Made by a program: the position numbers and the translations under genes. The notes under the pieces were generated by a model. That model did no database searches. It worked only from the letters and a program-made list of their open reading frames with translations, and had not been told where the DNA came from. Of a DNA stretch of 64,000 nucleotides, positions 1,225 through 7,899 are shown piece by piece; position 1 is the first letter of the stretch; each line of letters begins with the position of its first letter. Source of the stretch: an uncultured Spirochaetota bacterium (lineage in GTDB: Bacteria > Spirochaetota > Spirochaetia > SZUA-6 > Fen-1364); contig CAVTHO010000001.1 of the NCBI GenBank assembly GCA_963734545.1, positions 27,943 to 91,942 of the forward strand, given 5' to 3'.

Positions 1225-2751
1225 CTACTCGGCCCTCTCCACGCCCACCAGGGTGATGTCGTCGTCGTAGGATTCGTTGCCCCGCCAGGTTCTTACATCA
1301 GAGGCTATTCGCGCAACTGCCGCTGAAAGACTGTCCTTCCTCGTCGCGCGGGCGAAGGCAAGGAGGCGATCCCGGGAGAACGCCTCGGAGTGGAGGTTGC
1401 CGCAATCGGTGAGACCGTCGGAGTAGAGGAGCAGCCGGTCCCCCGGCGCGAAAGAGATCGCCGCCTCCGTGAGCGTCAGGCGGGGGGAGAGCCCCACCGC
1501 GTGGCCATCCACCCTGATCTCCTCGATCCGCTCGTCCTTTCGCACGACGAGAGGGAAGGGATGACCGGCCCGGACCATGCGCATTTTTCCGGTTTTCAGA
1601 TCGATGACCCCATAACAGATCGAGAAAAAGGCCCCATCGCCGAATCCCTGGAACAGCTCATTCATGCGCACGACGACCTCGCGCGGCGAGAGCGGGTCGG
1701 TGTTGAGGAACGGCAGCGTCCTTCCCCGCGCGGGGTCCGGCGCCAGAAGCCTGCTCACCAGGTACGCCATGGAAGCGGCCGCGATTCCATGGCCCATCAC
1801 GTCCACGATGAAGAGACCCGCGTGCGTGTCATCGATGGGGTAAAAGTTGTACACGTCTCCCGCGCCGAAGGCCGCAGGCAGGAGGAACCCGTGCATCGTG
1901 AAACCTCCCAGTGACGTTCCGCTTGCCGGGAGGAGGCTCTTGTGGACTTTCGCGGCGGATCGGAGCTCCTCCTCGACGATGCCCTCCACCCTCCGGGGCT
2001 CGGTGTTGTCGCGGAAGGAGAGGACAATGCCGCGCACCATGCCGCGTTCATCGCGGTACGGCTCGAGATTCAGGTCGACGGTGCGCCGGATCCCGCTTTC
2101 CGTAAGGAGAGTGCAGTTGCGGTAGCCGGCCCTGTTGCCGTCAAGAATCACCTCGTCGAGAGGCAAAGGGGTCTCCTGCCGGCCGCGATGCTTGATGATC
2201 TTGACCAGGCTCATCACCGATGTGGAGAGGGGGAGGGGCAGGGTGAGGTTCAGGAGATTTGCCGCGGTGGCATTGATGTACTCCACGCCGCCTTTGATGC
2301 CCGCCACGATGATGCCGTCTCCGAAGGACTGGAGCACGGTGGTAAGCCTTTCCTTGGCCCGGCGCAGCTCTTCGTGGAGGGCGGCCTTGTGCAGCGCCAT
2401 CTCGATCGAGGCTTCCAGCGCCCGTTCGTCGAACGGCTTCAGGACGTAGCCGAACGGCTCGGTCAGCTTGGCCTTCTCCAGCGTGTCCGAGTCGGAATAG
2501 GAGGTCAGGTAAATGACCGGCACGTGGTAGGAGTCCTTGATGATCCCGGCAGCCTCTATCCCGTCCATCGCGCCGGTCAGGTGGATATCCATCAACACGA
2601 GGTCGGGCTCCATTGCCTGGACCTCCCGCACCGCATTTTCCCCCGAGGACACGACCGCGGGAACCTCGTACGAGACGCTCTCCAGGTAGGTGCGGATGGC
2701 AAGCCCGACGAGCTCTTCATCTTCCACCACGAGGATGCGTGCTTTTTTCAT
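1225..2751 (-). CDS. Response regulator receiver + PAS + PP2C (SpoIIE/RsbU-like) phosphatase
   Basis: ILVVEDE and LMDIHL receiver; PAS; GDVY, DVMGHG, AGHP, LYSDG and DDIT PP2C motifs. Confidence 0.9.
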   Translation of the reverse strand: MKKARILVVEDEELVGLAIRTYLESVSYEVPAVVSSGENAVREVQAMEPDLVLMDIHLTGAMDGIEAAGIIKDSYHVPVIYLTSYSDSDTLEKAKLTEPFGYVLKPFDERALEASIEMALHKAALHEELRRAKERLTTVLQSFGDGIIVAGIKGGVEYINATAANLLNLTLPLPLSTSVMSLVKIIKHRGRQETPLPLDEVILDGNRAGYRNCTLLTESGIRRTVDLNLEPYRDERGMVRGIVLSFRDNTEPRRVEGIVEEELRSAAKVHKSLLPASGTSLGGFTMHGFLLPAAFGAGDVYNFYPIDDTHAGLFIVDVMGHGIAAASMAYLVSRLLAPDPARGRTLPFLNTDPLSPREVVVRMNELFQGFGDGAFFSICYGVIDLKTGKMRMVRAGHPFPLVVRKDERIEEIRVDGHAVGLSPRLTLTEAAISFAPGDRLLLYSDGLTDCGNLHSEAFSRDRLLAFARATRKDSLSAAVARIASDVRTWRGNESYDDDITLVGVERAE

Positions 2752-2764
2752 CGCTCTCACCTTC

Positions 2765-4564
2765 TTACTCCTCTTCACTCTGCTCGGGGGCGCTGGCGGA
2801 CAGCCGGGGGAACTCGATCTCGAGCCGTGTGCCCTGCGGGCCCCTGCTCACGCGCAGGCTCCCCTGGAGTTGTTTGGCAAGCCGGGAAACGATCTGCATG
2901 CCGAGCGTGCCCGCCGTTTCCGGGTCCACTTCCGGCGGTATCCCCACGCCGGTGTCCGCGACCGAAAGCAGGACACGGTCATCGTCCGTGCGCGCGAGCT
3001 CGACGCGAAGCTCCCGCTTCTCGAAAACCATGCCGCGCGGGAAGGCATGCCGCAGGACGTTCGTGCACAGCTCGTTGACGATGAGCCCGCAGGGGATCGC
3101 CTGGTTCACCCCGAGACTCAGCGGCTGCGTCAGGGGAACGAACGCTATTCCTCCCTCCGTGCGGTACGCGGCGAGCAGGCGGCCGACGAGCCGCTGGAGG
3201 TAGCCGCCGAAATCGATATGGCTGAAATCCTTGGATCGATAGAGGTCCTCGTGCACGAGCGCCATTGAGAGGACCTGGTTGCGCGAATCCTGAATGGCCG
3301 CGCGGGCGCTTTCACTCTCGATGCGGCTCTCCTGCAGGTAGAGGAGGCTCGAGATGATCTGGAGGTTGTTTTTCACGCGATGGTGGATCTCCTTCAGGAG
3401 AACCGTCTTTTCCTGGAGGGAGGCGAGGATCTGCTGTTCGGCCTGCATGACTTCGGTGACATCGTGGCTGATTGATCCTATCCGGTAGCCCTGGTCGGTA
3501 CGGATAAGGAACTCGTTCTGCCGAAACGAGCGCAGGGTGCCGTCAGGACGCTGTATGGCGTCTTCGATCTGGCGGGAAAGAAGCGGCGGCTCCTGAGGGG
3601 CGAGCGCTTCCCGGTAGTGTCCTTCGACTCTGGACAGATAGTCGTCCGTGAGGCGCGTGCGGGGCATCGCCTTCATGGCGAGGCTCCAGATCGGATTGCC
3701 AATGACATCCGCGGCGGGAATCCCCGTGAGAAGCTCGGAGGCCTTGTTGTAGACGATGACGATTCCCTCCTCGTCGGTCATGACGATCGATTCGCTCGAT
3801 TGCTCGATAAAAGTTCGGAATTTTTCCTCGCTGGCGACAAGTGCCTGTTTCACGATTCCCGCCTCGACCAGGTCTCTGGACCTCTGGGCAGCGATGAAGA
3901 CCACCGCGGCCAGCCACCCGTACTGGACGAGGTAGATGAAGGAGTACAGGCCAAAGGCAACCGCAAAGTCGCTGATATAGGCGACGCAGACGATCCCGAG
4001 CAGCCAGAAGAGCCTGCGCGCGTCCCGACCATGACCGCTGCGGCCGTACCGCCAGGTAATCCACAGGAAGTAAGCGAAGAGGGCGATCCCGGTGAAGTAC
4101 TGGACGGTCGTCAGTATTCCCGGCGCGACTTCGAGGAAAACGACGGAAAGCCCGAATGGCAGGCTCACGCGTGTCGTGACCAGCCTGGCCGGGTCCCATG
4201 TCAGGCTCCCGAACCCGGCAATCTGGATGAAGACGCTGATACCGCACCAGGCGGCAAAAGCGAGGAAGTGGCCCTTCGGCACCTGCCGGGTGCGGTCGGA
4301 AAGATACCAGAGGAAGGAGAGCGCCACGAGATTGAGAATGATCGCCTGGGCCCTCAGCCACGGGATGCTCTGCAGGGCCGACTCGACATTGTATTCTCCC
4401 GCGCATGCGATATCATAGAGACCGGCCAGAAAGCAGGTGACCGCGAAGGAGAGATCGTAGATGTTGCCCCTGCGGCGCCACCAGATGAGGAACTCGTACA
4501 GCACGACCGTCAGGCAGACGAATCCCATCCCGATGGGGAAGAACGGATAAAGCTTCACTATCAC
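2765..4564 (-). CDS. Membrane sensor histidine kinase (multi-TM N-terminus, PAS, HisKA_2/HATPase)
   Basis: EIHHRVKNNLQ H-box, NELCTN, DTGVG, GTLGM; about 7 hydrophobic segments; start may be GTG 4558. Confidence 0.9.
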   Translation of the reverse strand: MIVKLYPFFPIGMGFVCLTVVLYEFLIWWRRRGNIYDLSFAVTCFLAGLYDIACAGEYNVESALQSIPWLRAQAIILNLVALSFLWYLSDRTRQVPKGHFLAFAAWCGISVFIQIAGFGSLTWDPARLVTTRVSLPFGLSVVFLEVAPGILTTVQYFTGIALFAYFLWITWRYGRSGHGRDARRLFWLLGIVCVAYISDFAVAFGLYSFIYLVQYGWLAAVVFIAAQRSRDLVEAGIVKQALVASEEKFRTFIEQSSESIVMTDEEGIVIVYNKASELLTGIPAADVIGNPIWSLAMKAMPRTRLTDDYLSRVEGHYREALAPQEPPLLSRQIEDAIQRPDGTLRSFRQNEFLIRTDQGYRIGSISHDVTEVMQAEQQILASLQEKTVLLKEIHHRVKNNLQIISSLLYLQESRIESESARAAIQDSRNQVLSMALVHEDLYRSKDFSHIDFGGYLQRLVGRLLAAYRTEGGIAFVPLTQPLSLGVNQAIPCGLIVNELCTNVLRHAFPRGMVFEKRELRVELARTDDDRVLLSVADTGVGIPPEVDPETAGTLGMQIVSRLAKQLQGSLRVSRGPQGTRLEIEFPRLSASAPEQSEEE

Positions 4565-4622
4565 TTAATCTACCACGCGATGCAGCCGATTCACAAAACG
4601 CGGGGGTCGGCGGATTTTTCAC

Positions 4623-4651
4623 TTGACAGGCGCCGCTCCTGTTGGTATTCT
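4623..4651 (+). promoter_or_regulatory. sigma70-type promoter with extended -10, no long ORF downstream
   Basis: TTGACA(4623-28), 17 bp, TATTCT(4646-51), with TG at 4643-44. Confidence 0.75.
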
Positions 4652-4802
4652 CTGCACGATTTGGCTGTCTGGTCGCCGGCTCTCTGGTCCCTGCGCTGCG
4701 CAACATGCGTGCGGCGCAGACTGGAGAACCGGCTTTTTTTGTGGATCATCCGACCGCGGACGGAAATAAGAGTCCTGCGAAGGCAGGGAAAGGAGGTGCG
4801 GA

Positions 4803-4850
4803 GTGAAGAACGAAAACGAAATGCCTGACCAGAGGTGGTCGGGCGTCTAG
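4803..4850 (+). CDS. Putative 15-aa peptide (M)KNENEMPDQRWSGV
   Basis: AAAGGAGGT SD at 4789-4797, 5 nt before GTG 4803; TAG 4848-50. Confidence 0.3.
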   Translation: MKNENEMPDQRWSGV

Positions 4851-4860
4851 ACAGTCCAAA

Positions 4861-4892
4861 GTGGCCGTCCCTGGACTCTTGGGGACGGCCAC
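4861..4892. terminator. Hairpin, probable terminator of the ABC operon (possibly bidirectional)
   Basis: GTGGCCGTCCC/GGGACGGCCAC 11-bp stem next to the permease stop; TTT follows on the minus strand. Confidence 0.6.
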
Positions 4893-4894
4893 CC

Positions 4895-5743
4895 TTATTC
4901 CTTGATCCCGCCGGACGTCATTCCCATGACGATGTATTTCTGGAATATGACCGCGATCAGGACCGGCGGGAGCGAAGCAATCACCCCTCCCATGGCGATC
5001 ATCTCGTAGTCCACGTAATGTTTGCCGCTGAACTCCGCGATGGCCACGGGGATGGTCTTGGCCGCGAGGGTCGAAGTGAAGACAAGGGCGAAGAAGAACT
5101 CATCCCATGCGATCAGGAACGAAAGAATCGCCGTGGCAATGATCCCCGGCCGCGCCATGGGCACATAGATGTGCCAGAGCACCTGCAGGCGGCTGCACCC
5201 TTCGATCGAAGCTGCCTCCTCGAACGTCCGGCTGAGGGACCCGAAGTAGCTCTGCATCACCCAGATCACGAACGGCAGCGACATGGTGAGATACAGCAGG
5301 ATGAGCGTGGGACGGGAGTTGAGCATGCCCAGCTTGCTGAGAAGGAGGTACAGGGGCATGACGACGACGACGGACGGCACCATGTACGTGAAAAGGATCA
5401 GGTACATGATTTTCCCCTTGAACGCGAACCGCAGGCGCGCGAACGCGTAGGAGGCGAGCGAGCCGAGGACCAGGGAGACGACCGTGGCCGCGCCCGCAAC
5501 GATGAGGCTGTTGCCCATGGCGACCTTGAACGCGAATGCGATGTCGTTGTCGTGGTTCGCAATGACGTCCCCATACCTCTGGAAGGTGACCTCCGGCGGG
5601 ATGAGCCGCAGCGGCTTGGAAATGATGTTGCGATGGATGGAAAGGGAAGTAATCATCAGCCAGAGGATCGGCGCAAGGGCGAAGACGAGCACGAGGAAGC
5701 CCGAGAAGTATTGCACCCAGGGGAAAATGCGGCTCCTGGTCAT
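4895..5743 (-). CDS. Carbohydrate ABC transporter permease (MalG-like)
   Basis: EEAASIEGCS EAA loop, WDEFFFA, GGIKE end; ATG 5743 overlaps the upstream stop (ATGA). Confidence 0.92.
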   Translation of the reverse strand: MTRSRIFPWVQYFSGFLVLVFALAPILWLMITSLSIHRNIISKPLRLIPPEVTFQRYGDVIANHDNDIAFAFKVAMGNSLIVAGAATVVSLVLGSLASYAFARLRFAFKGKIMYLILFTYMVPSVVVVMPLYLLLSKLGMLNSRPTLILLYLTMSLPFVIWVMQSYFGSLSRTFEEAASIEGCSRLQVLWHIYVPMARPGIIATAILSFLIAWDEFFFALVFTSTLAAKTIPVAIAEFSGKHYVDYEMIAMGGVIASLPPVLIAVIFQKYIVMGMTSGGIKE

Positions 5744-6639
5744 TGATCCCCCACTTCCCTGCGCTTCATGCTCCTGATGTACAGGACCGTGAAGACGAGC
5801 ACGATGATCGCAATCAGGTACGACACCGTGGATGAGATCGAGTACTGGAGATTGGCGAACGCTTTCAGGTATGCCTCGTAGACCAGGACCTTGGTTCCAT
5901 TGGACGGACCGCCCCGTGTCATGACGTAGAAGATGTCGAAGGCCTTGAACTTCTCCACCGTGCGCATGACCACCACGACGGAGAGCGTCGGCACCAGGTA
6001 CGGCAGGGTGATGTGCCAGAACCTCTTGAAGACGCCCGCACCGTCCACTGTCGCCGCCTCGTAGAGCGACTTGTTGATGAATTGAAGGGCCGCCAGGAAA
6101 AAGATGATGGCGAACGGGGTCATCTTCCACACGTCCGCCGCGATCACCATGTTCATTGCCAGGAACGGATCGCTCAGCCAGGCGCGGTACTCCGCAAGGA
6201 TGTGCAGCCGGGTGAGCACCGCGTTCAGGACGCCATACTCGGGATTGTAGATCCACTTCCATATGCTTGCGTTCACGATGCCGGGTATGGCCCAGGGCAC
6301 AATGACCAGCACGCGCAGAAAACCCACGCCCAGGAACCGCGTGTTCAGGAGGAGCGCGGCGAGCAGACCGAGCATTGTCTCAAGCGCCACCGACACGCCG
6401 GTGAAGTAAAGGGTCCGCGCGAGCGCCTGCCAGAACCAGGCGGAGGCAAGGACCTGGATATAGTTCCAGAGCCCGAGAAACTTCCCGCGTTCCGCGGAGA
6501 TCAGCTCCATGTTTTTCAGGCTGTAGATGAACGTCGTGACAAGCGGGACCAGCACGACGCCGAAAATGACCACGGCGGCAGGGGCAAGGATGAGAAACGC
6601 AAACTGCTGCTCCGCAAACACCTGCCGCCGTGGAGTCAA
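5740..6639 (-). CDS. Carbohydrate ABC transporter permease (MalF-like)
   Basis: LYEAATVDGA EAA loop, TRGGP. Confidence 0.92.
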   Translation of the reverse strand: MTPRRQVFAEQQFAFLILAPAAVVIFGVVLVPLVTTFIYSLKNMELISAERGKFLGLWNYIQVLASAWFWQALARTLYFTGVSVALETMLGLLAALLLNTRFLGVGFLRVLVIVPWAIPGIVNASIWKWIYNPEYGVLNAVLTRLHILAEYRAWLSDPFLAMNMVIAADVWKMTPFAIIFFLAALQFINKSLYEAATVDGAGVFKRFWHITLPYLVPTLSVVVVMRTVEKFKAFDIFYVMTRGGPSNGTKVLVYEAYLKAFANLQYSISSTVSYLIAIIVLVFTVLYIRSMKRREVGDQ

Positions 6640-6654
6640 GAGATCGTCCTCTCT

Positions 6655-7899
6655 CTACTTCTTTGCCGCCAGGGCCGCTGCGAATGCCTGCTCTTCCGCC
6701 AGGGCCTTGTCACTGGTCTTCTTGCCGCGCAGCACGTCCTGGATCCTGGCCTGGAAATCGGTGGAGAACTCGCTGTAGTACGGCAGCGACGGCCTGTTCA
6801 CCAGGTAGGTGTACTGGTCCTTCGCGATTTTGACCACCTCGGGGCTCGACGCAATGACGTCCTTGTCGGCATAGAGGGATTTCCAGATGGGGAGCGCATT
6901 GGCGGGGTGCTTCCGCTGGAAGTCCTTGGACGCCATGTACAGGATATACTGCCACGCGGCCTTGTCCTGCTTTGTGCCCGCGGAGATCGAGAGGGGCTGG
7001 CCTCCGTTCACCGTGGCGCTGGCCACCGCGCCCGATCCCGGGATGAGGGCAACGGCCACGTCGTTCACGACCTTGGACTTCGAAGGGTCCCGGGCTCCGT
7101 TGTACATGTATGTCCAGTTCAGCCCGAAGGCAGCGTCACCGTTGCTGAAAGTGGCGAGCACGTCGTCTTCCACGAACTCCAGGGAGTTCGGATTCGTCAC
7201 GCCTTCGGCGAGCGTCTTCACCATGAAATCGAGCGCTCTCTTGTTGCCGGCGGCGGTCAGGGTGGGGTTCCCGTCCTTGTCGAACATGGCGCCGCCGAAT
7301 GCCGCCGACAGGATCGTGTAGTCGCACATCAGGGCTTCCGCCTGCGTCCAGCTCCACGCGATGGGGAACTTCACGAGGCCTTTTGCCTTGATGACCTTTG
7401 CCTGGGAAAGAAGCTCGTCCCAGGTCCTGGGAGGATTGTTGAAACCGGCCGCCGCAAGGATCTTCTTGTTGTAGAAGAGGTACTTGCAGTCGTTGAGCCA
7501 GGGCATGCCCCAGCTTTTTCCATTGTAGACTGTCGAGAGGATCGCCCCGCCGAATATGTCCTTCTGGTCGGCCGCGGAAAGGGCGGGAACTTCCTTGATG
7601 ATGGACGCTTTGGCAAACTTGGCGGTGAACGGACCGTCGCTCAATACCACGTCGTAGCTTCCGGCCTGCGCGGAGGTGATGATCTTTTCCTCGAGCTGCT
7701 CGTACGGCACGAAGGTCAGCACCACCTTGATGTTCGGGTTGGCTTTTTCGAACTCCCGTGTGCCCGCCGTCACATCGTCCTCGCTGTAGCCGGCCTGCTT
7801 CATGAAAAGCGCATTGAGCGTCGTCGGCGCGCCGTACACGCCCGTGGCGACCACCAGCAGCGCGGCCAGAAATCCGAAAATCATTTTCCTCATGACCAT
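6655..7899 (-). CDS. Sugar ABC transporter substrate-binding protein
   Basis: Signal peptide, GMPWLND, PPRTWDEL; GAAGGAAGGAG RBS. Confidence 0.9.
   Translation of the reverse strand: MVMRKMIFGFLAALLVVATGVYGAPTTLNALFMKQAGYSEDDVTAGTREFEKANPNIKVVLTFVPYEQLEEKIITSAQAGSYDVVLSDGPFTAKFAKASIIKEVPALSAADQKDIFGGAILSTVYNGKSWGMPWLNDCKYLFYNKKILAAAGFNNPPRTWDELLSQAKVIKAKGLVKFPIAWSWTQAEALMCDYTILSAAFGGAMFDKDGNPTLTAAGNKRALDFMVKTLAEGVTNPNSLEFVEDDVLATFSNGDAAFGLNWTYMYNGARDPSKSKVVNDVAVALIPGSGAVASATVNGGQPLSISAGTKQDKAAWQYILYMASKDFQRKHPANALPIWKSLYADKDVIASSPEVVKIAKDQYTYLVNRPSLPYYSEFSTDFQARIQDVLRGKKTSDKALAEEQAFAAALAAKK

Follow-up and report, generated by a model that had tools for sequence, protein, structure and literature searches.

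A structured RNA element with a 15-codon reading frame in uncultured wetland Spirochaetota

Bacterial RNAs that serve both as folded regulators and as templates for a tiny open reading frame (ORF) are, to our knowledge, few, and nearly all of them come from model bacteria. In RNAIII, which carries hld, long-range contacts between the 5' and 3' regions delay translation, and in the trp and pyrBI leaders it is the translation of the leader ORF that matters, not its product. Spot 42 encodes the 15-residue peptide SpfP, as described in passages of PMC8916003, and fold-back mRNAs of type I toxins are described for aapA1/IsoA1 and hok in passages of two reports (PMC5416894, PMC6733600). The element considered here lies at 4623-4902 of a 64,000-nucleotide stretch (the window, meaning the whole stretch analysed) of contig CAVTHO010000001.1 from an uncultured Spirochaetota bacterium. 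Comparison with relatives identifies it as a gene in its own right, for a structured RNA that belongs to a so far undescribed family, and it is rated as a new RNA family. Its anatomy, as aligned, is unusual and cleanly defined, and joins three features that are not known to have been described together: a terminator before the ORF, a covarying clamp between the first bases and the stop-codon region, and a frame that is kept while the peptide drifts. Selection appears to act on the RNA and, probably, on a ribosome passing along it, and not on the peptide. A preliminary description had proposed an unannotated stand-alone RNA with an attenuator-like terminator before a micro-ORF, and the whole of this architecture proved to be conserved in varied contexts.

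Layout, fold and conservation of the element

The element lies at an intergenic region (4565-4894) with minus-strand genes on both sides. The following features were assigned.

4623-4651, + strand: sigma-70-type promoter, with -35 TTGACA at 4623-4628, a 17-nt spacer and the extended -10 TGgTATTCT at 4643-4651
4658-4672, + strand: 5' arm GAUUUGGCUGUCUGG, the 5' strand of the closing stem P1, from the fold and its covariation with the 3' arm
4675-4740, + strand: P2/T1, a long hairpin (4675-4733) followed by U7 (4734-4740), intrinsic-terminator-like and inside the transcript
4749-4764, + strand: P5 hairpin UCCGAC-CGCG-GACGGA, followed by conserved single-stranded GGAAAU, from alignment A3
4774-4787, + strand: P6 hairpin CCUGC-GAAG-GCAGG, adjoining the Shine-Dalgarno (SD) sequence
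4788-4798, + strand: SD GAAAGGAGGUG, perfectly complementary over 11 nt to the 16S 3' end of the same genome, GAUCACCUCCUUUCU
4803-4850, + strand: 15-codon ORF GTG...TAG, MKNENEMPDQRWSGV, starting 6 nt past GGAGGU, with TAG at 4848-4850
4823-4844, + strand: P7 hairpin GCCUGACCA-GAGG-UGGUCGGGC, inside ORF codons 7-14
4846-4860, + strand: 3' arm UCUAGACAGUCCAAA, the 3' strand of P1, containing the stop codon
4861-4902, + strand: T2, a 14-bp GC-rich hairpin (4861-4892) with the U-poor tail CCUUAUUCCU, terminator-like in a scan

The orphan consensus promoter that the preliminary description had seen between two minus-strand genes is indeed present. With its -10 hexamer TATTCT (4646-4651) and TG extension (4643-4644), it agrees with the consensus at 10 of 12 positions and is the sole + strand promoter-like site in 3500-6500, where both strands together gave two sites against 0.7 expected. 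At the homologous loci inspected, the promoters read TTGAC(A/G)-17-TAnnnT and lie 6-9 nt 5' of the 5' arm. From promoter geometry we infer a transcription start at about G4658, and T2 is presumed to be the 3' end of the long transcript, which would give a long RNA form of ~243 nt and a T1-ended form of ~84 nt. The hairpin 4675-4733 with its T7 run (4734-4740) had already been called terminator-like, and this holds: the T1-ended 84-nt product (4658-4741) has a predicted fold of -44.6 kcal/mol with z = -5.04. Between T1 and the SD, a sigma-70 or sigma-54 promoter was sought by eye and not found.

The + strand from 4658 to 4905 (248 nt) has a predicted minimum free energy of -126.8 kcal/mol (z = -6.97), equalled by 0 of 200 shuffles, and the minus strand of the same stretch gives z = -2.65. 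In the best fold, P1 joins the 5' and 3' arms and encloses the remaining hairpins, with the TTTGGCTGTCT/AGACAGTCCAAA pairing included. The GCCTGACCA/TGGTCGGGC hairpin at 4823-4844, which the preliminary description had proposed for the 3' part, is present in the predicted fold as well. Keeping the 5' arm single-stranded costs 13.6 kcal/mol, and a fold with extra CTCTGGTC/GACCAGAG pairing is possible at a cost of 8.4 kcal/mol (-118.4 versus -126.8). The earlier claim that the 5' arm takes part in two mutually exclusive foldings, one local and one long-range, thus survives in part. The end-to-end stem of 13 bp is real and covaries, but it is compatible with the local hairpins and stands beside them in the best fold, so that the long-range option was half right; only the weakly supported CTCTGGTC/GACCAGAG extension excludes them.

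Pairing in P1 was counted by a script with the arms anchored on their core tetranucleotide, because the MAFFT registers differed between groups. Across 18 distinct arm pairs, 170 of 198 cells were paired; when the 3' arms were redistributed among the sequences 1000 times, the mean was 147.2 (sd 4.3) and no trial exceeded 161. Full Watson-Crick swaps (A-U/G-C or U-A/C-G) occur at five positions, with counts of A-U 6 versus G-C 10, U-A 13 versus C-G 5, U-A 8 versus C-G 10 and A-U 16 versus G-C 2, and with four pair types at the fifth. The count leaves out 12 of 36 alignment rows (G labels denote genomes, G000 being the genome of the window, and L labels denote loci): contig ends truncate G005b, L058 and L063, the 5' arm is absent from G023 and L062 and the 3' arm from L053, the arm of G040 and G035 could not be placed, that of G080, L055 and L052 is shifted and weaker, and that of L060 was recognised later. 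The arm duplex has a mean energy of -16.2 kcal/mol with its own partner, compared with -8.2 (sd 3.6) for partners taken across groups, and in full-length ensemble folds the pairing of the two arms reaches a probability of at least 0.75 in 17 of 22 cases.

A local 3' hairpin is an alternative for the 3' arm in most lineages, with all five of its pairs changed on both sides; the option is not present in the window element and its nearest relative. Beyond P1, the next 25-30 nt could pair with the 3' half of the ORF as a rod extension in every group, for a total duplex of -31 to -53 kcal/mol. In a model-fitted alignment, which is biased towards the covariance model's own structure, P5, P6, P7 and the local 3' hairpin were 88.0% paired, a level reached by 0 of 500 shuffles, with changes on both sides in 9 of 23 pairs. 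By helix, 89.6% of cells were paired in P5, 97.2% in P6 (both-side changes in two of five pairs) and 82.5% in P7 (both-side changes in two pairs). Alignments checked by eye gave no covariation for a helix between the start-codon region and the bases preceding P5, or for pairing of GGAAAUC with the 5' arm.

The element goes beyond chance, because this conservation and covariation are seen in other genomes. BLAST against 40 relatives recovered its 3' two-thirds (window ~4748-4896) in several genomes of the same family, and a covariance model of the core matched in 11 of 25 genomes of the family. An order-level search with the model matched 18 of 92 genomes, 17 of them credibly; the match in G006 (L031, 22.4 bits) proved on inspection to be an ordinary gene start. 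The credible matches fall in families f1 (11/24), f4 (1/2), f6 (3/21) and f5 (2/8), and none was obtained in f7 (0/24), f2, f3 and f8. Within the genus of the window genome 7 of 21 genomes are carriers, and in five others that are 95-97% complete an exhaustive pattern search did not find the signature. Among metagenome contigs, a degenerate pattern of the SD-ORF geometry gave 18 matches, all 18 true by the model, 17 of them at 70.8 bits or more and one at 25.9 bits; viral contigs gave 0 pattern matches.

No true match was found in 150 other genomes of the class, a search of low sensitivity with only 23 candidates scored per genome; in this class sample (151 genomes including G000) a match in G112 spans two ordinary genes. 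A locus in an Alistipes metagenome-assembled genome (MAG; L049, 17.4 bits) and a 26-nt match in G013 (L011) were put aside as ordinary gene starts or chance. In a pattern search of named records, 7 of 18 matches were true, and their carriers are uncultured Spirochaetota MAGs with record-title tags such as 'fen' and 'SPRUCE'. The family, now defined by a covariance model, an alignment and 36 members, is thus confined, as far as the searches reach, to one order of uncultured Spirochaetota, and it comes from uncultured spirochaetes of wetland and peat. The two 'copies' in G005 (L004 on contig C311; L012/L032 on C280) probably belong to two strains, because both lie at contig ends and their flanks are common to the single locus of G017; one copy has the upstream flank of the G017 locus and the other its downstream flank.

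The order of parts is conserved. All 35 members for which upstream sequence is available have T1, P5, P6, the SD-ORF and P7; L053 is without T2. After the 5' arm the homologues have one or two variable hairpins, T1, an optional extra hairpin and P5, which reads UCCGNC...GNCGGA and is followed by GGAAAU. P6 adjoins a purine run of 6-12 (usually 11-12) ending in AGGAGG, and the 3' end consists of the stop codon, the 3' arm and a GC-rich hairpin with a T run. T1, a hairpin with a run of T4-T9, lies 41-146 nt 5' of the SD in 35 of 35 homologues with upstream sequence. Its stem is kept as GCCAUCC...GGAUGGC across several groups (L003, L005, L008, L010, L026, L027 and others), which exceeds the need of a generic terminator, and differs in the window (GCCGG...CCGGC).

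The neighbours vary from locus to locus: an ATP-binding cassette (ABC) permease, FMN reductase/aconitase, Sir2, MarR-GNAT, AzlD, shikimate dehydrogenase and an FHA-domain gene. In 8 of 9 loci examined the gene that follows the element runs towards it, and an empty-site comparison found that synteny is not kept around the Sir2 neighbour. Because the neighbours differ and the next gene is mostly convergent, the element is taken for a stand-alone accessory gene, not the leader of a neighbour.

The 15-codon frame and the proposed mechanism

The frame described earlier, AAAGGAGGT followed after 5 nt by GTG-KNENEMPDQRWSGV-TAG (4803-4850), was confirmed. The 3' end of the 16S rRNA was located in G000, and AGGAGG is invariant in all 16 rows of alignment A3. 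For the ORF statistics, 18 homologues were used that had been found with no ORF-based filter; the frame is conserved in 18 of 18. As the homologues are related, this count and those that follow for the frame and its codons overstate independence. The SD-to-start spacing is 6 nt in 17 and 5 nt in the remaining one (a 5-nt spacing occurs in five sequences of the wider homologue set), and the start codon is GTG in nine, ATG in five and TTG in four. The ORF has 15 codons in 17 and 13 in one, where an in-frame 6-nt deletion is the sole indel within the ORF. It ends in TAG 15 times, in TAA three times and never in TGA, the stop that closes 38 of 60 long frames in the window.

The unstructured codons 2-7 contain in-frame stops in 0 of 27 distinct sequences, against 2 of 27 and 9 of 27 in the other two frames. 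Given their composition, the probability of no stop is 0.66 per sequence, and about one third of the sequences would be expected to have one. Single-base changes in these codons, counted along a minimum spanning tree, comprise 12 synonymous and 42 non-synonymous ones, where 8.0 synonymous were expected (p = 0.09). No 3-base periodicity was found in the ORF alignment (entropies 1.33, 1.13 and 1.34). A conserved longer protein frame on either strand is excluded by insertions in P6 of 13 nt (L005) and ~24 nt (L023) and by the variable hairpins.

The peptides have 13-15 residues, polar or charged, and their sequences are group-specific. Replacements between groups are radical (QRWS, LKGS, PRRP, PRRT), and the C-terminal nonapeptide is invariant within close groups, for instance MPDQRWSG[IVF]. 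The invariant codons of the C-terminal half are all base-paired, synonymous sites that are paired do not vary, and the replacement of PRR by PWG between G021 and G024 is accompanied by matching changes in the 5' region. In these alignments the peptide sequence evolves almost neutrally, and its C-terminal half follows the pairing of the RNA. On our reading, the frame is kept open with a very strong ribosome-binding site.

The SD is partly exposed in the predicted folds, with a mean unpaired probability of 0.38 (range 0.06-0.80). The preliminary description had it pairing with the U tract of T1. This pairing is not conserved: its ensemble probability is at most 0.17 in 30 of 35 homologues and 0.02 in the window.

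The preferred reading, to which a probability of about 45% is given, is that of a self-clamped, T1-gated, translated mini-mRNA in which the transit of the ribosome matters, not the peptide. In this model the strong promoter would fire, T1 would end part of the transcripts at ~84 nt, and only a fraction would reach the ORF. The read-through RNA would fold P5 and P6 and present the SD, and P1 would close it once the 3' arm has been made. With both RNA ends buried by P1, the RNA should therefore be stable. A ribosome on codons 7-15 would have to melt P7 and the 3' strand of P1, and translation would in this way toggle the RNA between a clamped and an open form.

Several observations weigh against this model. 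The ORF may be incidental, because the bases of the conserved P, G and stop codons are all paired and A-rich codons 2-7 make stops rare. With the SD exposed only in part, the folds speak neither for constitutive nor for gated initiation. P1 appears in the alignment as common, not universal. In G023 (L009:1493-2150, - strand), a T1-ORF-T2 unit directly follows the FHA-domain gene with no promoter or 5' arm; L062 has no 5' arm and no P2, and its promoter lies directly before T1; L053 has neither 3' arm nor T2; and in G040 and G035 no arm could be placed. G014 (L002:1768-1800) and L059 carry a 29-nt perfect hairpin between the stop codon (TAA) and the 3' arm, and a terminating ribosome would therefore not cover P1 there. 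The rod extension taken alone gives -25.5 kcal/mol with its own partner versus -21.1 (sd 4.6) across groups, a weak comparative signal. Finally, no RNA run is among the 22 sequencing runs listed for 4560-4960, which says nothing on expression; the 20 runs with matching sequence for this interval are DNA metagenomes, none of which contains half of the sampled words.

Two side observations belong to these variants. In G023, T1 would serve as the terminator of the FHA-domain gene, and the first bases of the 29-nt hairpin of G014 and L059 repeat the start of the 3' arm.

A wider form of the mini-mRNA model, regarded as speculative and somewhat improbable, places the element in a new class of riboregulators gated by the ribosome, in which a mini-mRNA that stands alone and is clamped at its ends would sense translation through a 15-codon frame of free sequence. 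Transit through codons 7-15 would flip P2/P7 and the clamp P1 versus the extended rod, and the upstream intrinsic terminator would set the dose. In a bolder variant, the Pro/Arg/Gly-rich C-terminus, nascent or released, together with the invariant stop read by release factor 1 (UAG/UAA, never UGA), would make the ribosome dwell at termination. Should the act of translation be the signal, the element would be the stand-alone counterpart of leader-peptide sensing, and if the model is true it would offer a compact model of how ribosomes remodel RNA folds. At minimum, it represents a well-defined family that genome annotation currently misses.

Known families and rival explanations

A check against Rfam, 6S RNA included, had been proposed as the test of novelty, and the element came through it, with homologues and covariation found in relatives and no Rfam match. 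Rfam 15 gave 0 matches at the gathering score in the 64-kb window and 15 homologous loci, and with E up to 10 the region 4400-5100 yielded only chance-level hits to mir-3160, CC2171 and RT-15 (E at least 0.76). A full-text literature search returned no paper describing such an RNA. For 6S RNA (RF00013), the covariance model was unmatched in the window and the 15 loci at the gathering score and in 4400-5100 at E up to 10. The same model gave no match in G000 (89% complete) and is positive in only 5 of 14 control genomes; a 6S gene of the G000 lineage, if present, goes unrecognised by it. By shape, both the minimum-free-energy and the centroid fold branch into five hairpins within the closing stem, unlike the long irregular rod with a large central bubble of 6S RNA, and by distribution the near-universal presence of 6S RNA is at odds with 7 carriers among 21 genus genomes. 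For transfer-messenger RNA (tmRNA; RF00023), ARAGORN found 0 genes in 4000-5500, Rfam gave no match in the window, and there is no tRNA-like domain; the canonical tmRNA of the genome is on another contig (157.7 bits).

The rival that fares best, itself judged somewhat unlikely, is a pure non-coding RNA, in which the purine tract and the NUG triplet would be kept for structure, for a protein (e.g. CsrA at ACGGA and AAGGA) or for 30S binding, and the frame would be incidental. It would account for the near-neutral evolution of the peptide and for the pairing of all conserved codons in the C-terminal half, and the motifs cGGaa and AGGAGG, ~35-45 nt apart, are the most conserved unpaired or partly paired bases. 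Against this explanation, the start is always A/G/T-TG at a fixed distance from the SD, the frame stays open (0/27 stops, compared with 9/27 in another frame), the sole ORF indel is of 6 nt, a stop is ever present at the same place, and the most divergent member, L064, lacks the first GGA motif. The analogy with the GGA arrays of CsrA-binding sRNAs, raised in the preliminary description, fell away on comparison: conservation extends to just two GGA motifs, of which one belongs to the 3' strand of P5 and the other to the SD, and a CsrB/RsmZ-type CsrA sponge, with its many GGA motifs in hairpin loops, was rejected on that ground.

A micro-protein gene or dual-function sRNA (small RNA), in which the 15-residue peptide would be active, as SpfP is in Spot 42, and the structure would tune expression and stability, is considered unlikely. 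The strong translation signals, the conserved ORF geometry and the nonapeptide that is invariant within close groups speak for it, and a functional 15-residue peptide has a precedent in passages of PMC8916003. The substitutions speak the other way: there is no significant synonymous excess, the groups differ by radical replacements, the residues that never vary fall on paired bases, and synonymous sites in pairs are themselves invariant.

Quite improbable is a scheme in which the short T1-ended RNA with a free 5' arm would be the main product and the read-through part, with its anti-arm, a cis-encoded decoy or self-inhibitor. T1 resembles a textbook intrinsic terminator in every lineage, and a single-stranded 5' end, a hairpin and a U tail make the classical sRNA layout. 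The arm sequence, on the other hand, varies between groups in covariation with its cis partner, as would be expected of a structural stem more than of a seed for many targets, and G023 and L062 keep T1 and the ORF with no 5' arm. A scan of the unannotated G000 genome for complements of the 5' arm gave 787 sites, and the top ones were only non-specific GC-rich matches.

Very unlikely is a module of the type I toxin kind, in which structure would silence a stable fold-back mRNA encoding a small harmful peptide, an analogy that the preliminary description had also drawn. The 5'-3' long-distance pairing, strong promoter, very stable fold and small ORF recall it, as do the patchy distribution (7 of 21 genus genomes, with five near-complete ones lacking the element) and the variable loci, and fold-back control is described for aapA1 and hok in passages of PMC5416894 and PMC6733600. 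The comparison fails on the peptide, which is short (15 residues), hydrophilic and nearly unconstrained, polar or charged in all homologues, toxicity being judged here from sequence alone. It fails also on the long-distance pairing, which clamps the stop-codon region, so that the SD is not consistently sequestered. No minus-strand promoter-like site for an antisense RNA gene was found in 4565-4894, trans-encoded or non-sigma-70 antisense RNAs being outside the reach of the scan, and viral contigs gave 0 matches.

It is hardly credible that the element is a divergent RNA of the 6S kind, or that it acts in cis as leader or attenuator of a neighbour gene: the closing stem joins both ends and the 6S slot stays open because the Rfam model matches nothing in this genome, but no Rfam match appears at gathering or E-value level, the fold is multi-branched and lacks the rod shape with its central bubble, the RNA has a terminator inside it as well as an SD-ORF, most genus genomes are without the element, and the downstream gene is convergent in 8 of 9 loci with unrelated neighbours. 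The 6S analogy of the preliminary description accordingly does not extend to membership, there being no Rfam match and a patchy distribution.

Genomic surroundings and comparison with known systems

The genes on either side of the element in the window are the following.

2765-4564, - strand: HisKA_2/PAS histidine kinase gene, the upstream-side neighbour
Ending at 4895, - strand: last permease gene of an ABC transporter operon, convergent to the element

The kinase gene overlaps by 14 nt with a response regulator-PAS-SpoIIE/PP2C phosphatase fusion (1225-2778, - strand), and the two genes at 1225-4564 (- strand) resemble a two-component pair with a phosphatase output. The ABC operon (4895-7899, - strand) encodes BPD_transp_1 permeases and, at 6655-7899, an SBP_bac_1 binding protein. 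The last permease probably begins much later than its listed frame: of the 455 aa encoded by 4895-6262, only residues 265-445 match the permease domain, and this frame also overlaps the frame 5740-6639. T2 may additionally terminate this convergent permease gene; read on the minus strand its hairpin is followed by UUUGG, and a weak permease-gene terminator is possible. Read-through from the permease gene into the kinase gene would be fully antisense to the element RNA.

When the element is set beside the known classes, its sequence places it outside 6S RNA, tmRNA, type I toxins, CsrA sponges, attenuator leaders and every Rfam family. With tmRNA and 6S RNA it shares a closing stem made of the 5' and 3' ends, and tmRNA also has a short internal frame; it differs in having an SD and a start codon and in the lack of a tRNA-like domain. 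The trp and pyrBI attenuators likewise combine a short ORF with alternative hairpins and intrinsic terminators, but here there is no regulated downstream gene, and the first terminator precedes the ORF.

The hok/Sok and aapA1/IsoA1 systems resemble it in their 5'-3' pairing, very stable mRNA, small ORF, patchy occurrence and variable loci. In contrast to them, its clamp lies on the stop codon and not on the SD, its peptide is a hydrophilic, unconserved one of 15 residues, and no antisense gene was found. Dual-function sRNAs (Spot 42/SpfP, RNAIII/hld) are small, structured, stand-alone transcripts with their own promoter and terminator and an ORF of at most 30 codons, and as far as the bare sequence goes the element likewise has its own promoter and terminator and a small transcript. 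It differs from them in having no identifiable trans base-pairing region, a nearly unconstrained peptide and a terminator-like element 5' of the ORF. By analogy, the element would work most like the small RNAs with a tiny ORF and the fold-back small mRNAs.

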